From the IMG/VR virus record IMGVR_UViG_3300023184_000072, positions 22,305-86,304 of that record: 64,000 nt of DNA; one strand, given 5' to 3'. The notes below the pieces were generated by a model that did no database searches, was not told where the DNA came from, and was given only the letters and a program-made list of their open reading frames with translations. Position numbers and translations under genes: made by a program. This document shows, one piece after another, positions 5,753-61,979 of the stretch. Within the stretch, counting starts at the first letter, position 1. Every line of letters starts with the position of its first letter. The DNA comes from a virus.

Positions 5753-8700
5753 GATTTACAATTTTTATCTATTATGTTATTTTCTTTAAGTGCATTTACA
5801 ATATCTGTTGTATTAGATTTTGTAAGTATTTCTGTTGGTAAAGATACAACTTCTTCTTGAATTTCACCACCATAAAAGCTAACAATATCTGCATCATTTA
5901 ACTCTCTTGTTGTTTTCAATGTACCATTATCAATTACAGAAGGTCTGAAGTCTGTGTAGTTCTCTGTAGCTCTATTACCATCCCCATAAAGATTTACTAG
6001 TTTGTATACAGATTGTGGAAATCCTTTTTTATCTAGTATTCTTAATGGTTCTCCTGTAGATAAAAACACTCTCTTATATCCAAGTACATCATTTAAAGAG
6101 TAGTCTCCTTTTTTCTTTCTAGCAGCATAGTTAGCACCAGTAACAGTGTTACCAGTTAGTACATCAACTCTCACACCACTTTTCAATTTCACCACTCTAG
6201 GTACAGCAACATAGTCACTATTCATAGCTTTTTGATTATACTTATCTCCAATCACTAACACTTGTCTATCTATTGATTGAAGATTCATTGAATCAATCTT
6301 TGGAAAAGAAGGAGAGTAATAACCAGTAGTGCTAGGAAGTCCTAGTATCTCAGCAGCATAATCTACACTCTTAGGTTTAAAGAATGGTGTAACTCTAGGC
6401 ATAATCAATGCATCATTAAAATTATTTCTTTGGAACATTCCATCAGCAAATGCTTTTAATGTTTCATCAGAAGAAATAGAATTAACAACAGGAGCCACTA
6501 TAGTAGAATAATCTTCTATAGGAATAATGTTCTTAATAGATATAGCTGATTGATAACTTCCTTGTAGAATAGATAGAGCAATTAAATGTCTATATAACAC
6601 TTTTGTGTCAGCATTATAATCTCTAAGTTCTCTCATCATATCTGTATAGAGATCTTCATCATATGCATCTTTGATGTTAGCTCTAAGCTCTACACTCTTA
6701 GCTCCATTCTCTCTTTCAGAAGGAACAACTTGTAAGTCTTTTAGTATTTGTAAATCAGGATATTTTTGTTTTGCTATCTCTAATCTATTAGCAACAGATG
6801 TTTTTGCATTAACAAGAAGATTTTCTGTTCTACTATTAATACCAGTTTTAGTTTGTATAATGTAATCTAAGAATGCCATTTTAGCTTTGTTAGATATCTT
6901 ATTGAAGTTATCAATACTAAGGTATTTATTCTTAGCATAAGTTTTCATTATATCTTCTGTAATGATTCTAAGATTGTCTTGCTCTAATTTGAATATAGCT
7001 CCCATTGCTTGCATGGATGCAGAAAGAAGCTTAGCTTGATTTCCAAGGAATGTATTATCAAGAATTTCTTTTGCAGAAGAAATAATGTTTATATCATTAG
7101 CTTTCTGCGTTTGTAATTCTTTTCTTGCAAACATATCTCCAGATCCAAATCTACTTGTATCATAGTTTGTAGCTTGTGTGAAATCAAAATTAAATTCAGC
7201 CATCTTGGCATATTTCAAGAACTCTTTGAGAATAGCTTGTTGTTCACCATTCTCTTTTGTATTAAATTTACTAGCGGCATATTTAGATATATTTCCTTTT
7301 AATCCATCTACATTTATATTAGCATTATCAATTTCTTCTTGTGTTGAAGGAAACAATGATTTAGCATAATTAATATTATCTTCATAGAAAAGATTAGAAG
7401 AATTATTAGCATTTACAATTCTTAAATATTCTGAAATGATTGGTTGATTCAAAAAGTATATAGATTGTTCTCCTGCACCAATATTCTCTAAGAACATGAA
7501 TGTTCCAATAACAAGATTTGATTGAATGATTCTTGTAATAAAGTCATCCTTAGCTACATCCACTACAGCTGTTGCATATCCAGAAAGTCTATTAGAGATT
7601 AATTGATTAGTTCCATCAGCAGTTCTTGTTCCACCTAAAGATATTCTATCTACACCATTCACCTTTGTAGTGTTATGTTTCAATACAATACTTCCATCAC
7701 CTAATAATTCTTGGTCTTCTTTAGATAAACCATCAAACTTAGCAGGATCAATATAAGCTTGTATCTTTTGTCTTAATGAAAGATTTGTAATATTTACAGC
7801 TACAACACCAACCCATCTTTTACCCATAAGAAATGAGTTTCTCAAATTGGTCATGTAGTTTCTATTAAGAATTCTATTTGGAATTTTGTTCTCATCAATT
7901 CCTCTTAACTTATCTAATTCTCCAGCAGCATCTTTTAATCCAGCATCATCTACAGGAGATACAAGTCTTTCAAAGTTTTCAGGAAGCGTGATAAGTTTTT
8001 CAAGACTATCATAGTATTCATTCTCAAGAGCTTTCTTATACATATCTTTTACATACTCAATACGCAATTCAGCTTGTAAGTTTTTATCTGTTAACTTATT
8101 AAGATCTTTCTCAATCAATTCTCTGAACTCATATGGGTTTTCATATTGTTCTTCTTTAGCTTTGATATAATCTCCATAGATATTAAGTAGTCCTTTTGGA
8201 TCTTCTAATCCATAAACAACAATATCTAATGCTTCTATAAGATCAGCTTTCTTCATTTGTTTAACACCAAGAGTATCATCAAACACTTTACCATAGAAGT
8301 CTTTTGTATTCTGTTCATCACCTTGTAATCTAACAAGTTTAATATTACCTGTTCTATCTACATACACAGATTTAAGGTACATGTTCAACTTATCAATATC
8401 AAAATCCGATCCAGCTTTAGTAGTAATCTCTGAAGGTACTACAACTGTTGCTCCCATATATTGTGGAAGGAATCCTTTCACTCTAAACACCTCAGCAGAA
8501 GAAAGAGCTTGTGTAGGAATTCTAAATCCAATACCAGAAAGAATTGATCTTCCTTCTTCTGTACCATTTAAATATTTCAATAACTCGTTATCTGTTTTAA
8601 ATTTGTTTTTGAATTTATCTTTAAACCAATGAGGAAGTAACACTTCACAATATGGTTGTTCTTTAGTATAGAATTTAAGACTCTCATCTGTAAGCATTAC

Positions 8701-11700
8701 ACCAGCTTTTTCTTCATCAGTTAATGTTTCATACTTCTCTTTAGTTATCTTCTCCCATATGCCTTCCTTGTTCTTCATAACAATACTTCTACCTTTTGTA
8801 AAAGACTCAAGCATTGTTGCAGGCATTTGTACATGTGCTCCTCCATTCATTTTAGGAGAAACAATTGCTTTATCAATCATTGAGTAAACAATACTTCTAA
8901 TCTGTACATAAGAAGGAGAAGCTTCAAATGGAATCATAAACTGATTCTCATCATTAAGTTTGATTGTTTGTTTTGTATTAGTAGAAACTTCTCTTCTCAT
9001 CATCTCTCTCATTAATGTTTCAGATACACTTTTACCATCTTTCATTACAAATCCATTACCAAGATCTTCTATACCTAATCTGTTAAGAAGTTCATTGTAT
9101 GCATTTTGATGCATTGCATTAAGAATGTCTGTATTACGTTTATATTCTTCTGCAGCTCTAGGACTTGTTGGAATACCATTATCAAATAAATCTATACTTG
9201 CAATCTTAGTAATCTGAGAACCTCTAGTTTGTGATTTGTTATCACTACTAGCTGTCTCCACTTGAATACCATAAGCTTTCCAAGGAACTTGTACAATAGA
9301 TTCATCAGAGAAAGCTTCAGTGTTAAATGAACCATCTCCATTGTAAAGACTATGTAACTCTTGTGCTCCCACCTTTCTACCTGATTCAACAATAGCATAA
9401 CCTATATTTTGATTCTTCATTTGAACATATAGCTTCTCAAGGTTAGTTCCTTTCACCATACTATAGTAGATAGGCACTTGAGAGAACTTATCTAATATAA
9501 GATCAAAATTGTTTTTATTAAACTTGTTTCCAGATACAATAGGTTTTAATATCTCTGTTGTATATTTAGGACGTGGAGTTTCCATAAGCTTAACATCATG
9601 TGCTCTTAAAGCTTCACTAGTATATTCATATCCAGGAAGATTTTGTCTTGTAAAAGCCATTTCCCATTGGAACCATTTTTCTTCTGGTCCTTGTAAATCC
9701 CATTGTCCATTCTTAAGTTTAATCTCTCTGTGTGTTGTATCCATTAACCATGAAACAGCATCTGCCTCATTTGTTTTTGAATATAATGAATTAATAGCAG
9801 AAAGACTACCTGCAGTGATAACATCTTTTACAGTGATAGTATTAGTATGAGATTTATGTAAGTGATATCCAGGATCATTCTCTGTTAACTTAATACCATC
9901 AGCATTGTTTATATTATTATTCAAATATGTATTATATTCAGCACTATCAAATGTTGTTCTTCTTGGAGATAGAAAAGATTTAATACGTTTAGTTTCATCT
10001 AATGCTCCTCCTTTTTTAACAGCAAATTGATATGGATCTCCAAATAATATTTTGTGATATTCTATGTTAGCAATAATATAATTAACATTAGCATATGTTA
10101 TAATATGATTTATATCATCAGCAGATAAAGAATTTTTCTTTAATGATTCAGCTTTAAGGAAGTTATCATCAAGATCTTGGTAAGCATATGTATCTTTTCC
10201 TACTGGATTAATTTTATCATTTGCTTTAAGAACATTTGTTGTGTCTACAACCATAGTATCAATAAATTCTTTTACAGAGTTATTAATATCAGATATGTTA
10301 TCATTTACATATGCTGTGATTTCTTCAAGAGTGCGACCATCTTCAATCATTTCATTGATTGCTTCTAAATTCTTAGGTGCAAGAATATCTTTAAAGAATC
10401 TAAGTTGTTTAGGTCTATTTACTATTTCATCTATTTCTTCAGCTAGATCAGATAGTTTTTTTCTATCTTCTTCTGTTTTATTTTTCTTAGTAAATAGAGC
10501 AGCAAACTCTTTATTAAGTTGTTCAATTTTTTGTAGATTACCAACATTATTTAACTTCTCTCTATTTGTATAATCTAGAGCTAAATTAATGTCATCCATT
10601 AAATATCCTTTGAATATAGAATTAACATCTGTATAAGAGTTTCTTGCTATAGAATCAAATGAAACATTGTTACCAATATTCATCATCCATTCTGTAGATC
10701 CATCTGCAGGAATAAGGATGTAATATTTACCATTAAGGTTTTGATTAATTTCCATTGTAAATCTATCACCTATTGTTAATTTAGATGTAGAAGTACCTTT
10801 ATCATCATCTTGATTTTCTTCTCCTTGTATAACAGAAACTTTGAAATCTTTTATTTTGTTTCCATCCTTATCATAGAACAATCCACCTTTTTTCAAGACT
10901 TGACTACCTGTAGAGAACACATCATTTAATTCAGGTCTTGATTGTTTTAATTGATCAATAGTTGCTGATTCATTAAATTCATTCTCAAATACAGATGGTG
11001 TATTGTTTTCAGAGAAAGCACCAATACGTTGTCCCTCTACACCAAAGTATGTACTCTCTTGTGAAGGATTGTTCACTTTATTATATAGTTCAGCTAATGT
11101 AGATAATGGCCCACCAATATCTAATGTTTTACCAGAGATGCTCATTAAATCATTGTTACTTCCAAAGTAACCATATATACTTTCTACTTGGTCAGTAAAA
11201 CTATTTTTACCTACTTTATCACTAGGTTTAAGTTTAACATATGTATCATAATCAAACGTAACTCCAATAGCATTTAACATTGCTATCATGGCTTTAGGTT
11301 TTCTTATAGGCATATCTTTAAGTGCATCCTGATCTATTACATATTTATTATTTATATATTTAACAATAGTTCCATCTCCTTTAGCTAAAGTTTGAATGTT
11401 TGTCATCCATTCTTTTTCTGTTTGTTGAGTAGCTGTAAATAAATTAGCAGCTCCTGTATGAACACTATCAGCAGATTTATATTGTATTAATGCATTTGGT
11501 TTTTGTCTAGCAAATGTTTGTATAAATTGAACAAATAATCTCCAGTCATTATCATTAAACTCACCAAATGGAACCACCTTATCTTTACCACCCACCTTTT
11601 GGAATACACTAACATAGTTAGAATCATCCTGTGCTAGGTTGAATAATTTATTTGTAAATGCACCAACACTAGATGTATTAGAAAGTTTATCTAATAATGT

Positions 11701-21127: not shown

Positions 21128-24100
21128 TTATAGATTTTTAAAAGCTTTAACTATGTTACTATTTAAGTTTTTATTCTTAATAGTTTTTCCATCTCTAGCA
21201 GTACTCTTTTTTCCTTTAGAGTGTACACCTATAATATTTCCTTCAGAATCATATGAGAATTCTTTACCAGCTGCAAGTCCTTTACCTTTAGTACCAGATG
21301 CTACACCTTTTCCTGTTGTATCAAAATCTATATATCTAGGAAGTTTAATAATTCTACCATCAGGACCAAATGTATAATCTGGATGTTCAGCCATTCCAAT
21401 ATTATACTCCATGTTCTCTTTTTTGTTAGCAGCTTCTTTAGCATATAATGATGTTAATGCAGCTTCTGTAGTAGCTTTAGTATTAGATTTAGCTTGTGCT
21501 AGTTTATTAGCTGCATCCATATCTATTCCTAAGTTTCTAGCTCTATCTTGATTAACAGTGTTTATGTTATCATTATATACTCCTTGGTATCCTTGTTGGT
21601 TAATCTCAAATTCTTTAGAACCTATTTGATTCATAGCATCTGCTACACTAGCCATTATAGCTGATTGTGCTGCAGGATTATTTCCAGAATTCTTTACAGC
21701 TTCTCTAGCTTGAGAAAGAACTGCATTTCTATCCTTATCTGCAGAATATTTATATGGGGTTTTTAACATAGAATACATATGATTTTCAGCTAATCCTTCA
21801 ACTTGATTATTTGCAAGAGCATATAACTCAGGATTGATTTGATTACCTAATGGCATATTGAATGCAGGATACAATCCTCTAATTAAACTACTAGCTGCAG
21901 ATGCCCAAGGAAATCCTTTCTTAGGAGTTTCTTCTATTGCTTCAAGTTCAGTAGCAGCTGGTTTAGTTGGTGTTGGAGTGATAGTTGGTGCTACTGCAGG
22001 TGTTGCATTTTTATCAATAATAGAATTTAATATTGTATGATAAGGTCCCACTTTTTTATCAGAAGCTAATTCATAAGCTTTAGCTATTTTTCCTGACATA
22101 GTTTTTTCTTTATTTAAAACAGCTTTGACATCTTCTGCATCTTGTCCAGAATAGTTTTCAAGATCACTTATTAATTGTTTAGCTATTGTAGGATCAGAAA
22201 ATGCTTTATCTCTTTTAGGTCCCCATTGTGTTTCATAATTTGAACCTTTAAAAATATCTCCTGCTGTATCTGGTGCATTATAATCTATTGAACCAGGAAG
22301 AGTTCCTTTTACTGCATATGTACCATCTTGAGCTTTTATTGTTTTACCATTTTTAGCAACTTGAGAAAGTTCTCCTTTAGCTAATGTATGACTCACTTCT
22401 CCATTCTTAGCAAACTTCTCTTGAGAAACTTCTTTACCTAATAGGTTAGTTAAAAAATCAGTTGTTTGATGAATATGATCTTGGTAAGCAGCAAGATTTT
22501 CTTTGTCTTTTGCTAGTTGTTTTAATTTCATATTAAGTCCTAGTGTTTGCACTTCTTTTGTTTTATCTCCTAATGCTCCTATTGCTGTATTAGATTTAGG
22601 AACATCACTTGTTATTTTTTCTAACTCACCTGTATATTTTTTTTCTTGAGGAACAATTATATTATTTACAACATGTTTAACTTTTTTGTTAGCATATTTT
22701 TCAGGTAATTGGAATTGTTCTAACAAATCTTTATTAGTATTAAGATTACCATATACAACAGCACCATCATTTGTTATAGAAATAGGTTCATTAGTTTCTA
22801 TTTCTACATCTGGTTCATCTCCCATGTCTCCACCATCTTTCATTATAGAAAGTCCTATACCTGTTCTTCCTTGTTCATCTTTTTGGAAATGAGAATTACC
22901 ATATGCATTATATGTAAGTCCTTCTCCTTCTGAATAAGGATTGTATGATACAGGTTTTACACCTTCCCCTCCAGGAAGATTTCCACCCCAATGAGTTTTT
23001 AATTCTCCACCATCAGCATAAGTTTCCATAGCTCTTTCACTTGGAGGAGTGTATTCTTTTAAATGTCCACCAGCTCTATATTTATGTGCATAGTCAGCAA
23101 AGTCTTCTGCAGTGTGATCACCAAACATTGCAATCACTTGAGGATTCCAATCATTACTAACCCAACCACCTTCTTTTCTAACACTTCCAAATTGTCCCAT
23201 ATTTTTCCACATAGAATTATCCATTATTCTTTGTTGTGTGTTAGCATTGCTTTGAGTTAATTTATTTATTTTTCCAGCATCACCAAATGCTTGATCAAGT
23301 CCTCCTCCTACTAATTGTAAAGCTAATCCTGCTCCTGGGAATGCCATATCTGCTAATGGAGCAAGTGCTCCTGCTGCTTGAAAACCAGCATTATTATTAT
23401 ATCCAGCTCCTATTAAATTACTACCTAAACTATTGATAGGTCCCATTATATCCATTCCACCACCAGCTGCTCCTTCAAGATCTCCACCATCAGCATATTG
23501 TTTAACTTGATCAAGATCATCATATAATGTACCAGGAGCAAATGTATTAGAAATTTCTCCACCATCTTTATACATAACAAAGTTAGGAGTGAATGGTTGA
23601 TTTAACATTCTAGGTGCAGCTTGTCCTAATTGTTTAGCTCCTTGTCCTAAATATCCTGCAGCTCTAGATCCTGCACCTTCTCCAATAGCAGTAGGAAATG
23701 CTTCATAAGAAACTTCAGGTAAACCTGATAATAATGTAGCAGCATTTAATGCAGCTTTAGGAGTAAGTTTTAATCCTTTCTTAATATGACTAAGGATTCT
23801 TTGTTTATCTGTTTTGTTTGGATTATATCTATTAGCCATAACTTCTTTTCTGAATGCTTCAGAAGTTTCATCTTCTCTAGTTCCACTAGGATTAAGCACA
23901 CTCTTAAAATCTCCAAATGCTTTACTAGGATGAGCCATGTAATATAAAGGTCTTTCTCCTAATAAATAATCATCATATTCTGCTTGAGATCTTTTAGCTT
24001 CTTCTTCTCTTTGTGTTTGATTTCTTTTATCAGTAGATAACATTGCATCACTACCCTTGTATTTAGGTTTACCTTTAAAGAAGTCTTCATAAGATTGTAT

Positions 24101-48225: not shown

Positions 48226-49788
48226 TTAGAATTGTGGGATTTCCTCGATCAACACAGTTCTTGATAAATCTTCAATGAATACATCACATCTGTCTTTCAT
48301 CCAGATTTCGTATCCTGGGAATTTGTTAGCACTTGACATACCTTGAGATTTAGCAAAACCTAAGTGGTGACGAGTACCATCAATATAACCCCATGTCATA
48401 GAAGGAGCACCTTTCATTCTCACTTCTCTAATGTTATTCACCATTGAACCATCAGACATTGGAGAAACATCAAACACCATAAATACTGGAGTAGATTTTT
48501 TGTTTTGTCCAAACTCTAAGTTAGTTTGTGGTAAATCTAATTCTTTTAAGTGAATCAATTCAACTCTACCAGTCTCACGAGTTACCATTGCATCAAATGC
48601 AAAGTTGTAAGTGATATGTTGTCCTTCACCTTGCATATATCTGTTTCCAGAATCAGCCATGAAAGTAAGACCAGAGTTTAATGCATCTGTTTTTAAAGCT
48701 TGTTGGAATACATCAAATCCAGCTTCATTAGTATACATTTTTACACTTCTGTCTTTAACATCCACTCTTCTGTAGAATAAATCTCCAAATACTGAACGGA
48801 TTAAGTTAGCAGAGAATTCACCTCTGTTATATTGTACCAAGTTTCCATTGTTACGCATTCTGTGGTATACACCTGCAGATGTACGTTTCAATTCTTGTTT
48901 AGAACCATTAGTTTTAACTGTACCTGGTTTAGCCCAAATCATACGTTTAACTTTCAATTCTAACATTGATTTACGCATCCAGAATTCAATGAACGGTTCC
49001 CATTTAACATCATTACGAGTTAAAGGTAATTGGTTTCTTCTTTGTGGAGCATATACTAAGATGTCTAATGGCTTACCAGAAGAATCTCTCATCATTTTAT
49101 CATCAGCCCATTCAGTGATTTTGTGCTCATAACCATATGCAGAACCTAAAGATTCAAACATTGTGATTTGCTCACCTAATCTTGGAAGACCTAATAAGTC
49201 TTGATCAAACTCACCAATAGCAGCATCAACTAATTCTAGTTCAACACCATACTGTAAGAAGGTAGGATTAACAAAATCAATTGTTGGGTTATCAGTTACT
49301 AATGTAAATGAATACAAGTAACCCATGTTCCAAGGCACTGGATCTTTGATTACATAGAATCTAGGACCGTACTGACGAGTACCTACAGATATGATTGCAT
49401 TTTTAGAAAACTCATTAGTATCTAATACTAAAGTGAATTCTTGACCATCAATACCTGTCTTACCAGCATCAATTAATTCTTGCGTAGAAGCAGGAATGTC
49501 AATAATTTTTGGGAATTTGTAAGGAACAGCTATTTGCCATTTCCATGCATCACTATTATTATCAATGTAATAAGGTGTGCTTTTGTTGATCATGTCCAAA
49601 AAGTCATTACTGTACAATGAGCTCTGAGTATATAAAGAAATGATTTTCTTGTCATAATCTGCAGGCTCAGTAGAGTGAAAACTCTCTAAGTGATTGGAGT
49701 CTGTAAGTTTACCTACTGCACGCTTGTCCATAGAAGCTACTCTAGCGTAAGTAAAACCTGTTAACCCAGGGATTGTTTGAATTGCCAT
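48226..49788 (-). CDS. Major capsid protein (520 aa)
   Basis: Terminase-portal-scaffold-MCP order; size; high-expression codon bias (TTC/AAC/CGT). Confidence 0.85.
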   Translation of the reverse strand: MAIQTIPGLTGFTYARVASMDKRAVGKLTDSNHLESFHSTEPADYDKKIISLYTQSSLYSNDFLDMINKSTPYYIDNNSDAWKWQIAVPYKFPKIIDIPASTQELIDAGKTGIDGQEFTLVLDTNEFSKNAIISVGTRQYGPRFYVIKDPVPWNMGYLYSFTLVTDNPTIDFVNPTFLQYGVELELVDAAIGEFDQDLLGLPRLGEQITMFESLGSAYGYEHKITEWADDKMMRDSSGKPLDILVYAPQRRNQLPLTRNDVKWEPFIEFWMRKSMLELKVKRMIWAKPGTVKTNGSKQELKRTSAGVYHRMRNNGNLVQYNRGEFSANLIRSVFGDLFYRRVDVKDRSVKMYTNEAGFDVFQQALKTDALNSGLTFMADSGNRYMQGEGQHITYNFAFDAMVTRETGRVELIHLKELDLPQTNLEFGQNKKSTPVFMVFDVSPMSDGSMVNNIREVRMKGAPSMTWGYIDGTRHHLGFAKSQGMSSANKFPGYEIWMKDRCDVFIEDLSRTVLIEEIPQF

Positions 49789-60132: not shown

Positions 60133-60372
60133 ATGAAAAAACAAGAAAAACCAATTGAAGAGACAATTAAATTGCTTACAGAACTTGTAGAAGGTCAACA
60201 AAGAGCATTAGACATGGCTAACAATCTACTTGATATGAAAAGTAAACTTGTAGAACTATGTGAAGAAGAAGTGGAGATATACAAACATAATAATGTAAAT
60301 CTTTATAAAACAGTTATATGTCTTTCTGTATTACTTGTTATTTCAGCTTTTCTTCATATTATTAGATTATGA
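60133..60372 (+). CDS. Coiled-coil protein with C-terminal TM (79 aa)
   Basis: ORF track. Confidence 0.65.
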   Translation: MKKQEKPIEETIKLLTELVEGQQRALDMANNLLDMKSKLVELCEEEVEIYKHNNVNLYKTVICLSVLLVISAFLHIIRL

Positions 60373-60524
60373 GACGTAGAATATACAAAGGAACATTAGT
60401 GGGTTCAACTAATTCTCTTAGAAAAATAAAAGCTAGGAGGTTAATAGTTGAAGTGTTATACAATTTCAGATATGGGATTGTAACAGAGAAGACAATTGAT
60501 GTTAGACAAAACATTGAACAATAA
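60369..60524 (+). CDS. Small basic protein, 51 aa (absent from the ORF track)
   Basis: MRRRIYKGTLVG..; ATGA overlap with the previous stop. Confidence 0.55.
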   Translation: MRRRIYKGTLVGSTNSLRKIKARRLIVEVLYNFRYGIVTEKTIDVRQNIEQ

Positions 60525-60538
60525 ATTTGGTTAATTTG

Positions 60539-60570
60539 TTTGTTTTATTTATCCCTGTAGATTATATTTG
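60539..60570 (+). promoter_or_regulatory. Bacteroidota-type promoter TTTG-N20-TATATTTG for tmRNA
   Basis: Exact consensus ending 17 nt before the tmRNA 5' G; embedded in the hairpin ATCCCTG..CAGGGAT. Confidence 0.75.
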
Positions 60571-60890
60571 CAGGGATATTTATTTATGGGGGTGACTGGT
60601 TTTGACAGGTTACCAATAATTAATACAATCAGCCAGAGAGATAACTGTAAACTAAGGTGAATTTAATTAAATGGCAAAAACAATTCTCGTGTTGTGTCTC
60701 TAGGAGATTACGCACAAATCGAAGCTAACATGAATACAGTATTCTCTTTATTAGGAGAAGAAGTCCTTGTAGCAGCCTAAATTGAATAAGATTTCTCTAT
60801 TAGATTAAATAGAGTGGTGGAAACGTTGAGCTGAGCTTGACCCTATAAGCTGTATAAATTGTATTAACGAAAGTAGTTTGGACGTGGGTT

Positions 60891-61586
60891 TGGAAATTGG
60901 ACCCATTACATAGGAATATGTAATTAAAAATTGCTTGAATTGCTGGAACGCTAAGTCAGAAATGATATGCCAATCAGCAGCCAAGCTCACTAGAAGAAGT
61001 GAGAAGGTTCAGAGACTAGGGACACTAAGGTGAGCCCACAGTAAGCAACATCTAGAACAGATGATGATATAGTCCGATCCCTACAGAAATGTAGGAAGAA
61101 AGAATAGTCTTTCATAGGCTAACTTTCTTATAGCTTGTTTATTTGTGTATTTACCATTTCTAACGGTAACTACATCATGGTACTTCAAGACTGTGTTTAT
61201 ACGATGTAACTTTTTAGGATGGTGAGAATCTATAAGTCTACAAAATTTTAAACACTCTTGATTGCTATTACATGTTAAAGAATAACCTGTAGCATGGTTT
61301 TCTTTTCTAGAAGCTTTTGTTGATAGATGTAATTTTATATTATGTTCTTCTAACATATATTTTTGAATCTCTTCAAGGATATTAATGTATGTGTTAGTAA
61401 AATCTAATCTAATTGTTTTATACAATTCGTTTTTAGATTTCTTACATAGTGTAATTGAACCATCAGCATCAAAGAAGCCTGAAATGTATTGTAGTGTCAT
61501 GATAAATATGTTTTTAGATATGGTGTAAATCTACAACATGTCCTAGACATATGCAAGTAAAGTGACAACAAGTTATTAACAAAATG
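60891..61586 (+). mobile_element. Group I self-splicing intron in the tmRNA T-loop (696 nt)
   Basis: P1 GGGTT/GACCC with U:G at the splice site; P AATTGCTGGAA, Q AATCAGCAG, R GTTCAGAGACTA, S GATATAGTCC; P3 TTGCTT/AAGCAA; terminal G at 61586. Confidence 0.93.
61081..61500 (-). CDS. Single-motif LAGLIDADG homing endonuclease, antisense inside the intron (139 aa)
   Basis: LQYISGFFDADGSI motif helix followed by a beta-saddle (IRLDFTNT). Confidence 0.88.
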   Translation of the reverse strand: MTLQYISGFFDADGSITLCKKSKNELYKTIRLDFTNTYINILEEIQKYMLEEHNIKLHLSTKASRKENHATGYSLTCNSNQECLKFCRLIDSHHPKKLHRINTVLKYHDVVTVRNGKYTNKQAIRKLAYERLFFLPTFL

Positions 61587-61773
61587 CGACTCCCACCACC
61601 TCCACTCATAATGCTGATTATCAATCAGTTAAAGAAAGCAGTTGCTTGATGTCAAATATGTACAGCAACAGACATTAGAGAAATTTGGCTTCTCATGAAT
61701 GTTAAGTCCTTTCCACACAGAGAAGGAGTTGAGTACTTTATGGTTTGGGTTTTACTAGTGCCAATCTCAACAT

Positions 61774-61804
61774 AAAGGCTATCAGAAATGGTAGCCTTTT
61801 TTAT
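61774..61804 (+). terminator. Intrinsic terminator
   Basis: AAAGGCTATC-AGAAAT-GGTAGCCTTTTTT. Confidence 0.8.
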
Positions 61805-61832
61805 TTTGTATTAATCCTTAATAACAATAGAA

Positions 61833-61979
61833 ATGAAAACAATTGAATTACAACCAACTGAGTTTTATCAGTTCAGACAATTAGCATTTGCAATGTGTAT
61901 TGCATTTGCATGTACAATAGCACATGGTGTGTATATTGTAGAAGCCAATATAGACCAACTAGAAAAGTTGGGTTATTAA
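61833..61979 (+). CDS. Hypothetical protein, 48 aa (absent from the ORF track)
   Basis: MKTIELQPTEFYQFRQLAF..LEKLGY; followed by a GGGCTCT..AGAGCCC hairpin. Confidence 0.6.
   Translation: MKTIELQPTEFYQFRQLAFAMCIAFACTIAHGVYIVEANIDQLEKLGY

Follow-up and report, generated by a model that had tools for sequence, protein, structure and literature searches.

The genome of a crAss-like phage carries what is almost certainly an intron-form transfer-messenger RNA (tmRNA) gene, in which a complete group I intron interrupts the T-loop and itself harbors an antisense gene for a homing endonuclease. The locus occupies positions 60588–61604 of a 64,000-nucleotide stretch of DNA (positions 22,305 to 86,304 of IMG/VR virus record IMGVR_UViG_3300023184_000072), which was analyzed as a whole and is referred to here as the window. 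An earlier note, made from the letters of the window alone, had proposed both the split tmRNA and the complete intron, and both were confirmed at every coordinate. The source record is 86 kb long and estimated to be 75% complete, the runs and metagenomes that hold the stretch are of lake and freshwater origin, and profile searches with the window proteins identify the virus as crAss-like by capsid, portal, and terminase matches, as the note had supposed (the open reading frame (ORF) at 48226–49788(−) matches Crass_capsid PF23898 with E 2.2e-28). The phage is a new host for an already known gene form, the tmRNA split by an intron in its T-loop. The anatomy of the locus, its family scores, the conserved and covarying structure of both ribozyme and tmRNA, the alleles with an empty insertion site, and the linkage of the endonuclease to tmRNA genes are established by observation; we further consider it highly probable that the gene is spliced and functions in the manner outlined below.

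Standard tools overlook a gene divided in this way: ARAGORN, run on the whole 64-kb window, makes zero tRNA or tmRNA calls, and Rfam at its curated thresholds matches a single family there, the group I intron RF00028, which is to say that it gives the intron alone. Since both programs are blind to the split gene, phage tmRNAs of this kind stay unannotated, including that of the published crAss-like phage cr128_1.

Split tmRNA Gene and Its tRNA-Like Domain

Exon 1 (60588–60890, plus strand) comprises the 5′ strand of the acceptor stem (60588–60594), helix 2, the pseudoknot 1 (PK1) region, the tag reading frame, and downstream hairpins, and it ends with the 5′ strand of the T-stem (60884–60888) and the first two bases of the T-loop (60889–60890). 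Exon 2 (61587–61604, plus strand), recognized from its sequence and its pairing to 60588–60594 and 60884–60888, supplies the last five T-loop bases, the 3′ strands of the T-stem and the acceptor stem, and the discriminator base A61604. When the scan is ended at 60890, the tmRNA model RF00023 matches 60588–60890(+) with 43.2 bits (E 3.5e-16), covering model positions 1–353 of 374 and being 3′-truncated exactly at 60890, that is, after the two T-loop uridines; the 21 model positions left over correspond to 61587–61604. With the intron left in, a loose-threshold cmscan of 60300–61900 gives no RF00023 match.

Removal of 60891–61586 in silico yields an RNA of 321 nt with a T-arm of 5 bp and a 7-nt loop (GTGGG-TT^CGACT-CCCAC) and a 7-bp acceptor stem (60588–60594 with 61597–61603) that includes the G3:U pair, so that the T-arm and the alanyl acceptor stem predicted from the sequence are both present in the spliced form. 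In an alignment of 13 family members, the G3:U pair is invariant, whereas the acceptor stem, the T-arm, and helix 2 covary. The discriminator A61604 is followed by CTCA, which bears out the claim that CCA is not encoded.

Group I Intron

The intron (60891–61586, plus strand, 696 nt) lies between bases 2 and 3 of the T-loop and is matched by RF00028 at 60881–61096(+) with 94.1 bits against a cut-off of 50, over the full model (1–253 of 253); our own covariance model, R1, gives it 245.7 bits. Its ribozyme core, P1–P9, spans 60885–61095, and its 3′ tail (61501–61586) ends at omega-G 61586, directly before C61587. The intron is AT-rich and has 490 nt between P9 and omega-G. All the helices that the earlier note had drawn can be found: P1 with the U60890:G60900 pair, P2 (60905–60924), P3 (60931–36/61043–48), P4, P6/P6a, P7, P7.1 (61019–37), P8, and P9 (61080–95), as can the omega-G that it had assigned to 61586. 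The P7.1 insert between P7 and P3′, present in all 15 of the introns aligned here, fits what we take to be subgroup IA.

The proposed structure was tested by laying these helices on 15 tmRNA introns, namely those of the window, of 12 viral contigs bearing a LAGLIDADG gene, of cr128_1, and of contig L009. Over 12 helices and 15 introns, standard pairs occupy 92.6% of 869 cells, versus 75.2% in shuffled alignments and 32–43% (maximum 43.2%) when pairing partners are displaced by sliding. Compensatory changes, with both partners altered, are seen at 39 of 59 pairs, and not one of 500 shuffles attains any of the observed values. Covariation is seen at nearly every pair in P2, P3, P6a, and P9, whereas P7 is nearly invariant and neither supports nor contradicts the structure. 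A blind RNAalifold prediction recovers P2, P3, P4, P5, P6, P6a, and P9 and mispairs the strands of P1 and P7. At the 5′ splice site the U:G pair occurs in 14 of the 15 introns, and P1 tracks the exon, in that a T-stem end GGGTT faces GGACCC and a T-stem end GAGTT faces GGACTC. Among introns at the same subsite as that of the window, all 11 examined share the U at −1, the internal guide sequence pairing, and omega-G, and in all of them exon 2 begins with C.

Detection of such introns depends on the model. RF00028 misses the AT-rich tmRNA introns of L262, L263, L264, L268, and L278 even at E ≤ 0.01; R1 scores them at 139–201 bits, and their core strings are visible. R1 is not specific for tmRNA introns, as it gives 152 matches at E ≤ 0.001 in 100 control loci, and it was used solely for presence or absence within loci. 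A generic scan of viral DNA for the J8/7–P7 motif found at least 117 loci, and a regular expression for the tmRNA 5′ signature was found in none of the 117 listed; at least one locus, L113, is a false negative of this screen, as R1 gives 190 bits there next to a T-arm-like exon on a contig that starts 184 nt upstream. A 15-mer junction scan returned 101 stretches, the real ones being L226, L239, L258, and L259, plus the already known L013 and L015.

Intronless Alleles and the Phage tmRNA Family

The boundaries of the intron are fixed to the base by natural intronless alleles, the search for which the earlier note had recommended among related phages. The census of alleles covered the 37 sequences that contain an invariant 27-nt element of exon 1 (35 IMG/VR contigs and cr128_1, in all of which it is exact, together with the window itself). 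A script sorted these into 7 interrupted at the same T-loop bond, 23 uninterrupted ones, and 7 that it left unclassified. The split set consists of the window, L013, and L015, with introns of 696–703 nt, and of L005, L010, L024, and L032, with introns of 869–871 nt. Among the sequences that the script left unclassified, L009 holds an intron by RF00028 (79.4 bits) and by R1, and R1 finds no intron match in the other six. Near-isogenic comparisons with and without the intron are provided by L015 versus L028 and L035, by L013 versus L038, and, in the cr128 group, by L005, L010, L024, and L032 versus the intronless L007, L011, L022, and L037.

The intronless loci pass RF00023 as full-length tmRNAs in 12 of the 14 cases examined (L021 and the 5′-cut L023 have no match), with scores of, for instance, 95.3 bits for L006, 93.7 for L012, 90.7 for L025, 86.3 for L008, 79.2 for L035, 79.1 for L028, and 61.3 for L037. 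The window RNA, spliced in silico, is 93.8% identical to L008 and 93.5% identical to L025, and RF00023 gives 79–91 bits to alleles without the intron that share 92–94% identity with it. Because such near-twins without the intron score as tmRNAs, the objection raised in advance, that the spliced sequence might fail to score as one, is answered by proxy. The same family reaches cultured phages of Flavobacteriia, where uninterrupted relatives occur in Flavobacterium phage FpV4 (58.2 bits), in Cellulophaga phage phi40:1 (87.6 bits), and, by ARAGORN, in the crAss-like Cellulophaga phage phi14:2.

The human-gut crAss-like phage cr128_1 (MT774392.1 / NC_055885.1, about 7824–9140; L005 2202–3518) has the same split tmRNA, unannotated, with the same T-loop bond interrupted by a group I intron of 869 nt. 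The gene inside this intron, annotated as the “hypothetical protein” QOR59651.1, encodes an HNH-like endonuclease and is antisense. In L024 the intron is 2 nt longer and has no endonuclease ORF of at least 60 aa. As a separate observation, L260 (CALEBD010000052.1, 4269 b), from a metagenome-assembled genome (MAG) labeled “uncultured Clostridium sp.”, shares 98.9% identity with cr128_1 across the tmRNA and its intron, and its upstream pair of tRNA-Arg genes is also that of cr128_1; judged by its sequence, this contig from a bacterial bin is a piece of phage DNA, and other “bacterial” intron-form tmRNAs from MAGs may likewise include phage ones.

Antisense Endonuclease Gene

Inside the intron, on the minus strand at 61081–61500, lies an ORF for a single-motif LAGLIDADG homing endonuclease of 139 aa, which the earlier note had missed. 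The gene is antisense to both tmRNA and intron and shares its last codons with the P9 hairpin. The protein matches PF14528 with 29.7 bits (cut-off 22.5) and PF00961 with 29.8 bits (cut-off 23.1), and I-AniI and an entry titled “mRNA maturase” are among its best sequence matches in the PDB. Its homologues number 167 at E ≤ 0.001, are similar to it in length, and lie in many cases on contigs near 100 kb; 29 alignment columns are invariant, including FFDADG, of which D11 and D13 are invariant in 28 sequences.

The family is tied to tmRNA genes, in that the endonuclease gene lies inside one, or right beside it on the 3′ side, in 23 of 25 viral loci that encode relatives, nearly always antisense; the remaining two loci (L280 and L281) were left unassigned. 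An R1 tmRNA-type intron is present in 20 of the 25, with the endonuclease gene antisense in 18 and sense in 2 (L273, L275). In L270, L272, and L274 the intron is an ORF-less form of 194–225 nt, with the LAGLIDADG gene 14–52 nt beyond the 3′ end of the tmRNA, and in L271, L277, and L279 there is no intron, with a free-standing gene located 10–55 nt downstream of an intact tmRNA. The antisense orientation is most simply explained as a relic of the convergent free-standing arrangement. An antisense orientation is likewise found for the HNH-like gene that takes the place of the LAGLIDADG gene in introns of the cr128 type.

Because the family is linked to tmRNA genes in 23 of 25 loci, the presumed target of the enzyme is the intronless T-arm, which is palindromic as DNA and would be cut by a homodimer. 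The tmRNAs of L277 (805–1213(−)) and L279 (1351–1740(−)) have the T-loop AGTCGGA instead of TTCGAnn and encode CCA; the altered loop may represent an escape from the endonuclease. Other insertion subsites within the T-loop can be read tentatively from P1, after base 1 in L270, base 6 in L276, and base 7 in L265, L009, and L278.

Tag Reading Frame, Invariant Element, and Flanking Sequences

The tag reading frame (60673–60780, plus strand) begins at the resume codon GGC 60673, placed by the Rfam alignment, and ends with the stop codon TAA at 60778–60780. The resume codon is followed by 35 codons, GKNNSRVVSLGDYAQIEANMNTVFSLLGEEVLVAA, with the C-terminus ...VLVAA. The frame is open in all 15 distinct family sequences, the sole indel being one of 6 nt, in frame, and variable columns number 14, 11, and 19 at codon positions 1, 2, and 3, respectively. 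Members of the long-tag family have 35–37 codons and a conserved AQIEANMN.VFSLL core, and the human-gut type has an ordinary tag of 8 residues, GNTYRAAA. On the relatives, ARAGORN chooses later resume codons, and hence reports shorter tags, in the same frame.

The element that defines the census, at 60794–60820 on the plus strand, is formed by a hairpin plus GGTGG. It is found in only 1 contig of a genome set of 185,579 species, and it is letter-perfect across tmRNAs that are otherwise about 56% identical, that is, the freshwater long-tag, human-gut cr128, and L009 types. In cr128_1 it lies at L005 2507–2533, and it forms part of a 34-nt stretch of exon 1 in which that phage and the window do not differ.

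Upstream, just 5′ of the tmRNA start, is a terminator-like hairpin (60550–60578, plus strand) that contains TATATTTG. The latter fits TAnnTTTG, which we take to be the −7 promoter element of Bacteroidota, and it is a candidate promoter only. Measured from the tmRNA start, the motif stands at −25 in the window and, among the relatives, at −21 in L029 alone, the others having a different hairpin; a sigma-70 promoter scan found no excess of sites (9, versus 8.7 in shuffles). The region downstream (61605–61799, plus strand) consists of a conserved trailer, about 170 nt long, and then a terminator-like hairpin at 61774–61799. Aligned with its counterparts in five relatives, the trailer shows four hairpins, in which covariation is scarce, and it matches no known family; it is common to the window, L015, L021, L028, L035, and L038, and the other relatives are without it.

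Two further observations concern the neighborhoods of related tmRNAs. Oversized tRNA-like elements, matched by the tRNA model over 104–111 nt, adjoin tmRNAs at L257 3515–3623(−), L039 1990–2100(+), and L278 1438–1541(−), and a GOLLD RNA (RF02032, 328 bits) occurs at L274 1300–1714(+), about 1.2 kb from an intron-split tmRNA.

Relation to Known Systems

The first intron-form tmRNA is said to have come from Clostridium botulinum. The present gene resembles the bacterial intron-form tmRNAs in having a T-loop group I intron with a U:G pair at −1 in P1, an omega-G, and a loop rebuilt by splicing, and it differs from them in its location on a phage genome and in the antisense endonuclease gene. The 2025 tmRNA database paper (PMC11915505) lists 883 intron-form sequences, now from 21 phyla, and assigns the T-loop “position 3” subsite to class Bacteroidia only; as we read the legend of its Figure 2, this is the subsite of the window, after loop base 2. 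According to the same paper, LAGLIDADG genes are present in 36 of the 883 introns, after P9 or in P7.1; its main text does not use the words antisense, opposite, or orientation. RefSeq viruses were screened in that work, and the main text mentions phages only for DS6A and has no phage intron form. In part, the view first taken, that such introns are rare and mainly found in Firmicutes, agrees with this source as regards Firmicutes, but their rarity had been overrated, given that cr128_1 and at least 8 of 37 relatives are split.

Phage tmRNAs as such have been described from mycobacteriophages (Bxz1, Cali, Catera, and others) and from Bacillus phage G (PMC4131195), a source that also reports strong inhibition of tmRNA by a molecule consisting of the tRNA-like domain only, like that of phage DS6A, perhaps by titrating SmpB. 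The present gene shares with these the possession of an ssrA of its own without smpB, and hence the need for host factors; those described there are uninterrupted and belong to phages of other host phyla. The family analyzed here stands apart from them by its occurrence in phages of Bacteroidota (FpV4, phi40:1, phi14:2, cr128_1), by its long tags, and by the invariant 27-mer. For crAss-like phages, Yutin et al. 2021 (PMC7886860) described introns in protein genes, and the term tmRNA occurs zero times in the main text.

Parallels to the arrangement of intron and endonuclease exist elsewhere. A review (PMC3984707, citing Zeng, Bonocora and Shub 2009) treats collaborative, or trans, homing and the invasion of ORF-less phage introns by endonuclease genes. 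The states involved, as treated in that review, are free-standing genes, ORF-less introns, and composite introns, and all three are found around the tmRNA T-loop here; the differences are that the target is an RNA gene, that the embedded gene keeps the convergent orientation, and that the cleavage specificity is a prediction only. An antisense homing endonuclease gene has been reported from the nuclear rDNA intron Dir.S956-2 of Didymium iridis (PMC3679873), which is alike in carrying the gene on the strand opposite the group I ribozyme but is a nucleolar intron from a eukaryote, belongs to another subclass, and encodes an endonuclease of another family. In the literature searched, no account of an intron-split phage tmRNA was found in print, nor any title or abstract that reports an antisense endonuclease gene in a phage intron.

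Proposed Mechanism

Transcription of the plus strand would yield a precursor of about 1 kb, in which RNase P would cut at G60588. The ribozyme (60891–61586) is expected to excise itself by two transesterifications, with P1 presenting the U60890:G60900 pair and G61586 acting as omega-G, and the joining of 60890 to 61587 would rebuild the 7-nt T-loop. With the 3′ trailer trimmed and CCA added by a host enzyme, the 321-nt RNA would be charged with alanine via the G3:U identity pair and would work with host SmpB in trans-translation, adding a phage-specified tag of 35 residues that ends in VAA. That the window RNA is spliced at all is a prediction from its sequence, and ribosome rescue by this RNA would in turn depend on that splicing.

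The intron, for its part, is presumably mobile. The antisense LAGLIDADG enzyme most likely cuts intronless tmRNA alleles at the palindromic T-arm, and repair from an intron-bearing copy would then spread the intron among co-infecting phages.

RNA and DNA Runs and Alternative Explanations

Parts of the stretch are contained in 23 runs, including 6 RNA libraries that contain roughly a tenth of the words, and contigs were compared in three RNA runs (X19, X20, and X21) and one DNA run (X6). The spliced junction, which the earlier note had named as the feature to look for in RNA, was sought in the three RNA runs; what came to light there was uninterrupted T-arms of relatives, not the exact ligated 60890/61587 junction. 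In X21 an uninterrupted T-arm with a compensating stem change is joined to the downstream flank of the window (61593–61710, 2 differences in 118), which could be spliced RNA or an intronless allele, and X19 contains an uninterrupted T-arm from a more distant relative. A contig of the DNA run X6 is identical to 60471–60883, continues with 45 other letters, and then resumes at 61796, which is consistent with an intronless allele. A second X6 contig, with the join 60524/61797 (60471–60524 to 61797–61824), seems to be without the whole tmRNA locus; it was not used because no more than 28 letters flank the joint on one side, and it would, if it holds, weakly suggest that the tmRNA gene is optional among close relatives.

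Several points weigh against a spliced and functioning tmRNA. Besides the missing exact junction in the three RNA runs, the X20 contig, from a relative of about 92% identity, is unspliced across the 5′ splice site (it could be precursor RNA or DNA carry-over), and the T-arms in X19 and X21 may simply belong to intronless alleles. The 43.2 bits of exon 1 alone fall under the RF00023 cut-off of 47 bits, which is set for a whole gene. The tag is 3–4 times the usual length, and the codon signal in its frame is modest, with 478 synonymous versus 814 non-synonymous pairwise codon differences (478/1292). Expression of the precursor could be disturbed by the antisense gene that it contains. No CCA is encoded and the 86-kb record, at its estimated completeness of 75%, has no SmpB gene, so that function depends on host factors. 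Finally, ARAGORN calls no tmRNA in the spliced 321-nt RNA at its usual thresholds (−ps80, −ps60) and at −ps40 makes only a spurious permuted call on the opposite strand; since the program recognizes 8 of 16 intact intronless relatives and misses the other 8, its silence was rejected as evidence against a tmRNA.

Three other explanations have to be set against ribosome rescue by a self-spliced RNA. The RNA might be spliced and yet serve mainly for phage-specific tagging by its conserved peptide of 35–37 aa, or as a competitor for SmpB that blunts host trans-translation. The unusual length of the tag and its conserved core speak for such a role, as do the 27-nt element, invariant in the phages and absent from bacterial genomes but for the one contig, the fact that no phage SmpB was found in the record, and the inhibition of tmRNA, perhaps through SmpB titration, that PMC4131195 reports for a DS6A-like tRNA-like-domain molecule. 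Every part of a working tmRNA is nevertheless kept, from the G3:U pair and a resume codon in its usual context to the stop codon and the C-terminal AA, and the human-gut relatives have an ordinary tag of 8 aa; we regard this explanation as unlikely. More improbable still is a requirement for a protein helper in splicing, whether this is an RNA chaperone of the host or the LAGLIDADG protein in the role of a maturase. The enzyme I-AniI doubles as a maturase, and both it and the “mRNA maturase” are among the PDB matches; an AT-rich intron with 490 nt from P9 to omega-G would also fit a need for help. The core, on the other hand, is complete and covarying, and since the same family contains ORF-less mini-introns of 194–225 nt (L270, L272, L274) and related introns carry two types of endonuclease, LAGLIDADG and HNH-like, the protein is better seen as a passenger.

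That the intron no longer splices, leaving a dead tmRNA in which the selfish endonuclease alone persists, we hold to be very improbable. The exact junction is missing from three RNA runs, and the slightly longer intron of L024 without an endonuclease ORF indicates that decay does occur in the family; the core helices, the U:G pair, omega-G, and both exons are nonetheless intact and under covariation in the window, and 60471–60883 is identical in an independent DNA run. Rescue by a self-splicing phage tmRNA remains the explanation that we favor.

Implications for Phage tmRNAs and Their Introns

A wider reading of these data can be sketched, which we offer as a possibility and would not expect to hold in all its parts at once. 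Phages of Bacteroidota might be both reservoir and vector of the subsite-3 tmRNA introns that have been ascribed to Bacteroidia only; some of the “bacterial” intron-form tmRNAs in metagenome bins might be phage fragments, as L260 is; a single-motif LAGLIDADG family might attack the palindromic T-arm, with phages escaping by means of an intron or an altered T-loop; and the progression from a free-standing convergent gene, through the same gene next to an ORF-less mini-intron, to a gene embedded after P9 in antisense orientation might be a record of how composite introns are assembled.

What the phage gains from a trans-translation RNA of its own is a question prompted by its long conserved tag and its invariant 27-nt element, and the endonuclease family offers a well-populated natural series for studying the passage of homing endonucleases from the free-standing to the intron-borne state. 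The present gene extends the intron form of tmRNA from bacteria to phages and links it to the sole bacterial class from which the same subsite is known, and this subsite, being common to the phages and to Bacteroidia, makes the phage-mediated transfer of tmRNA introns testable.

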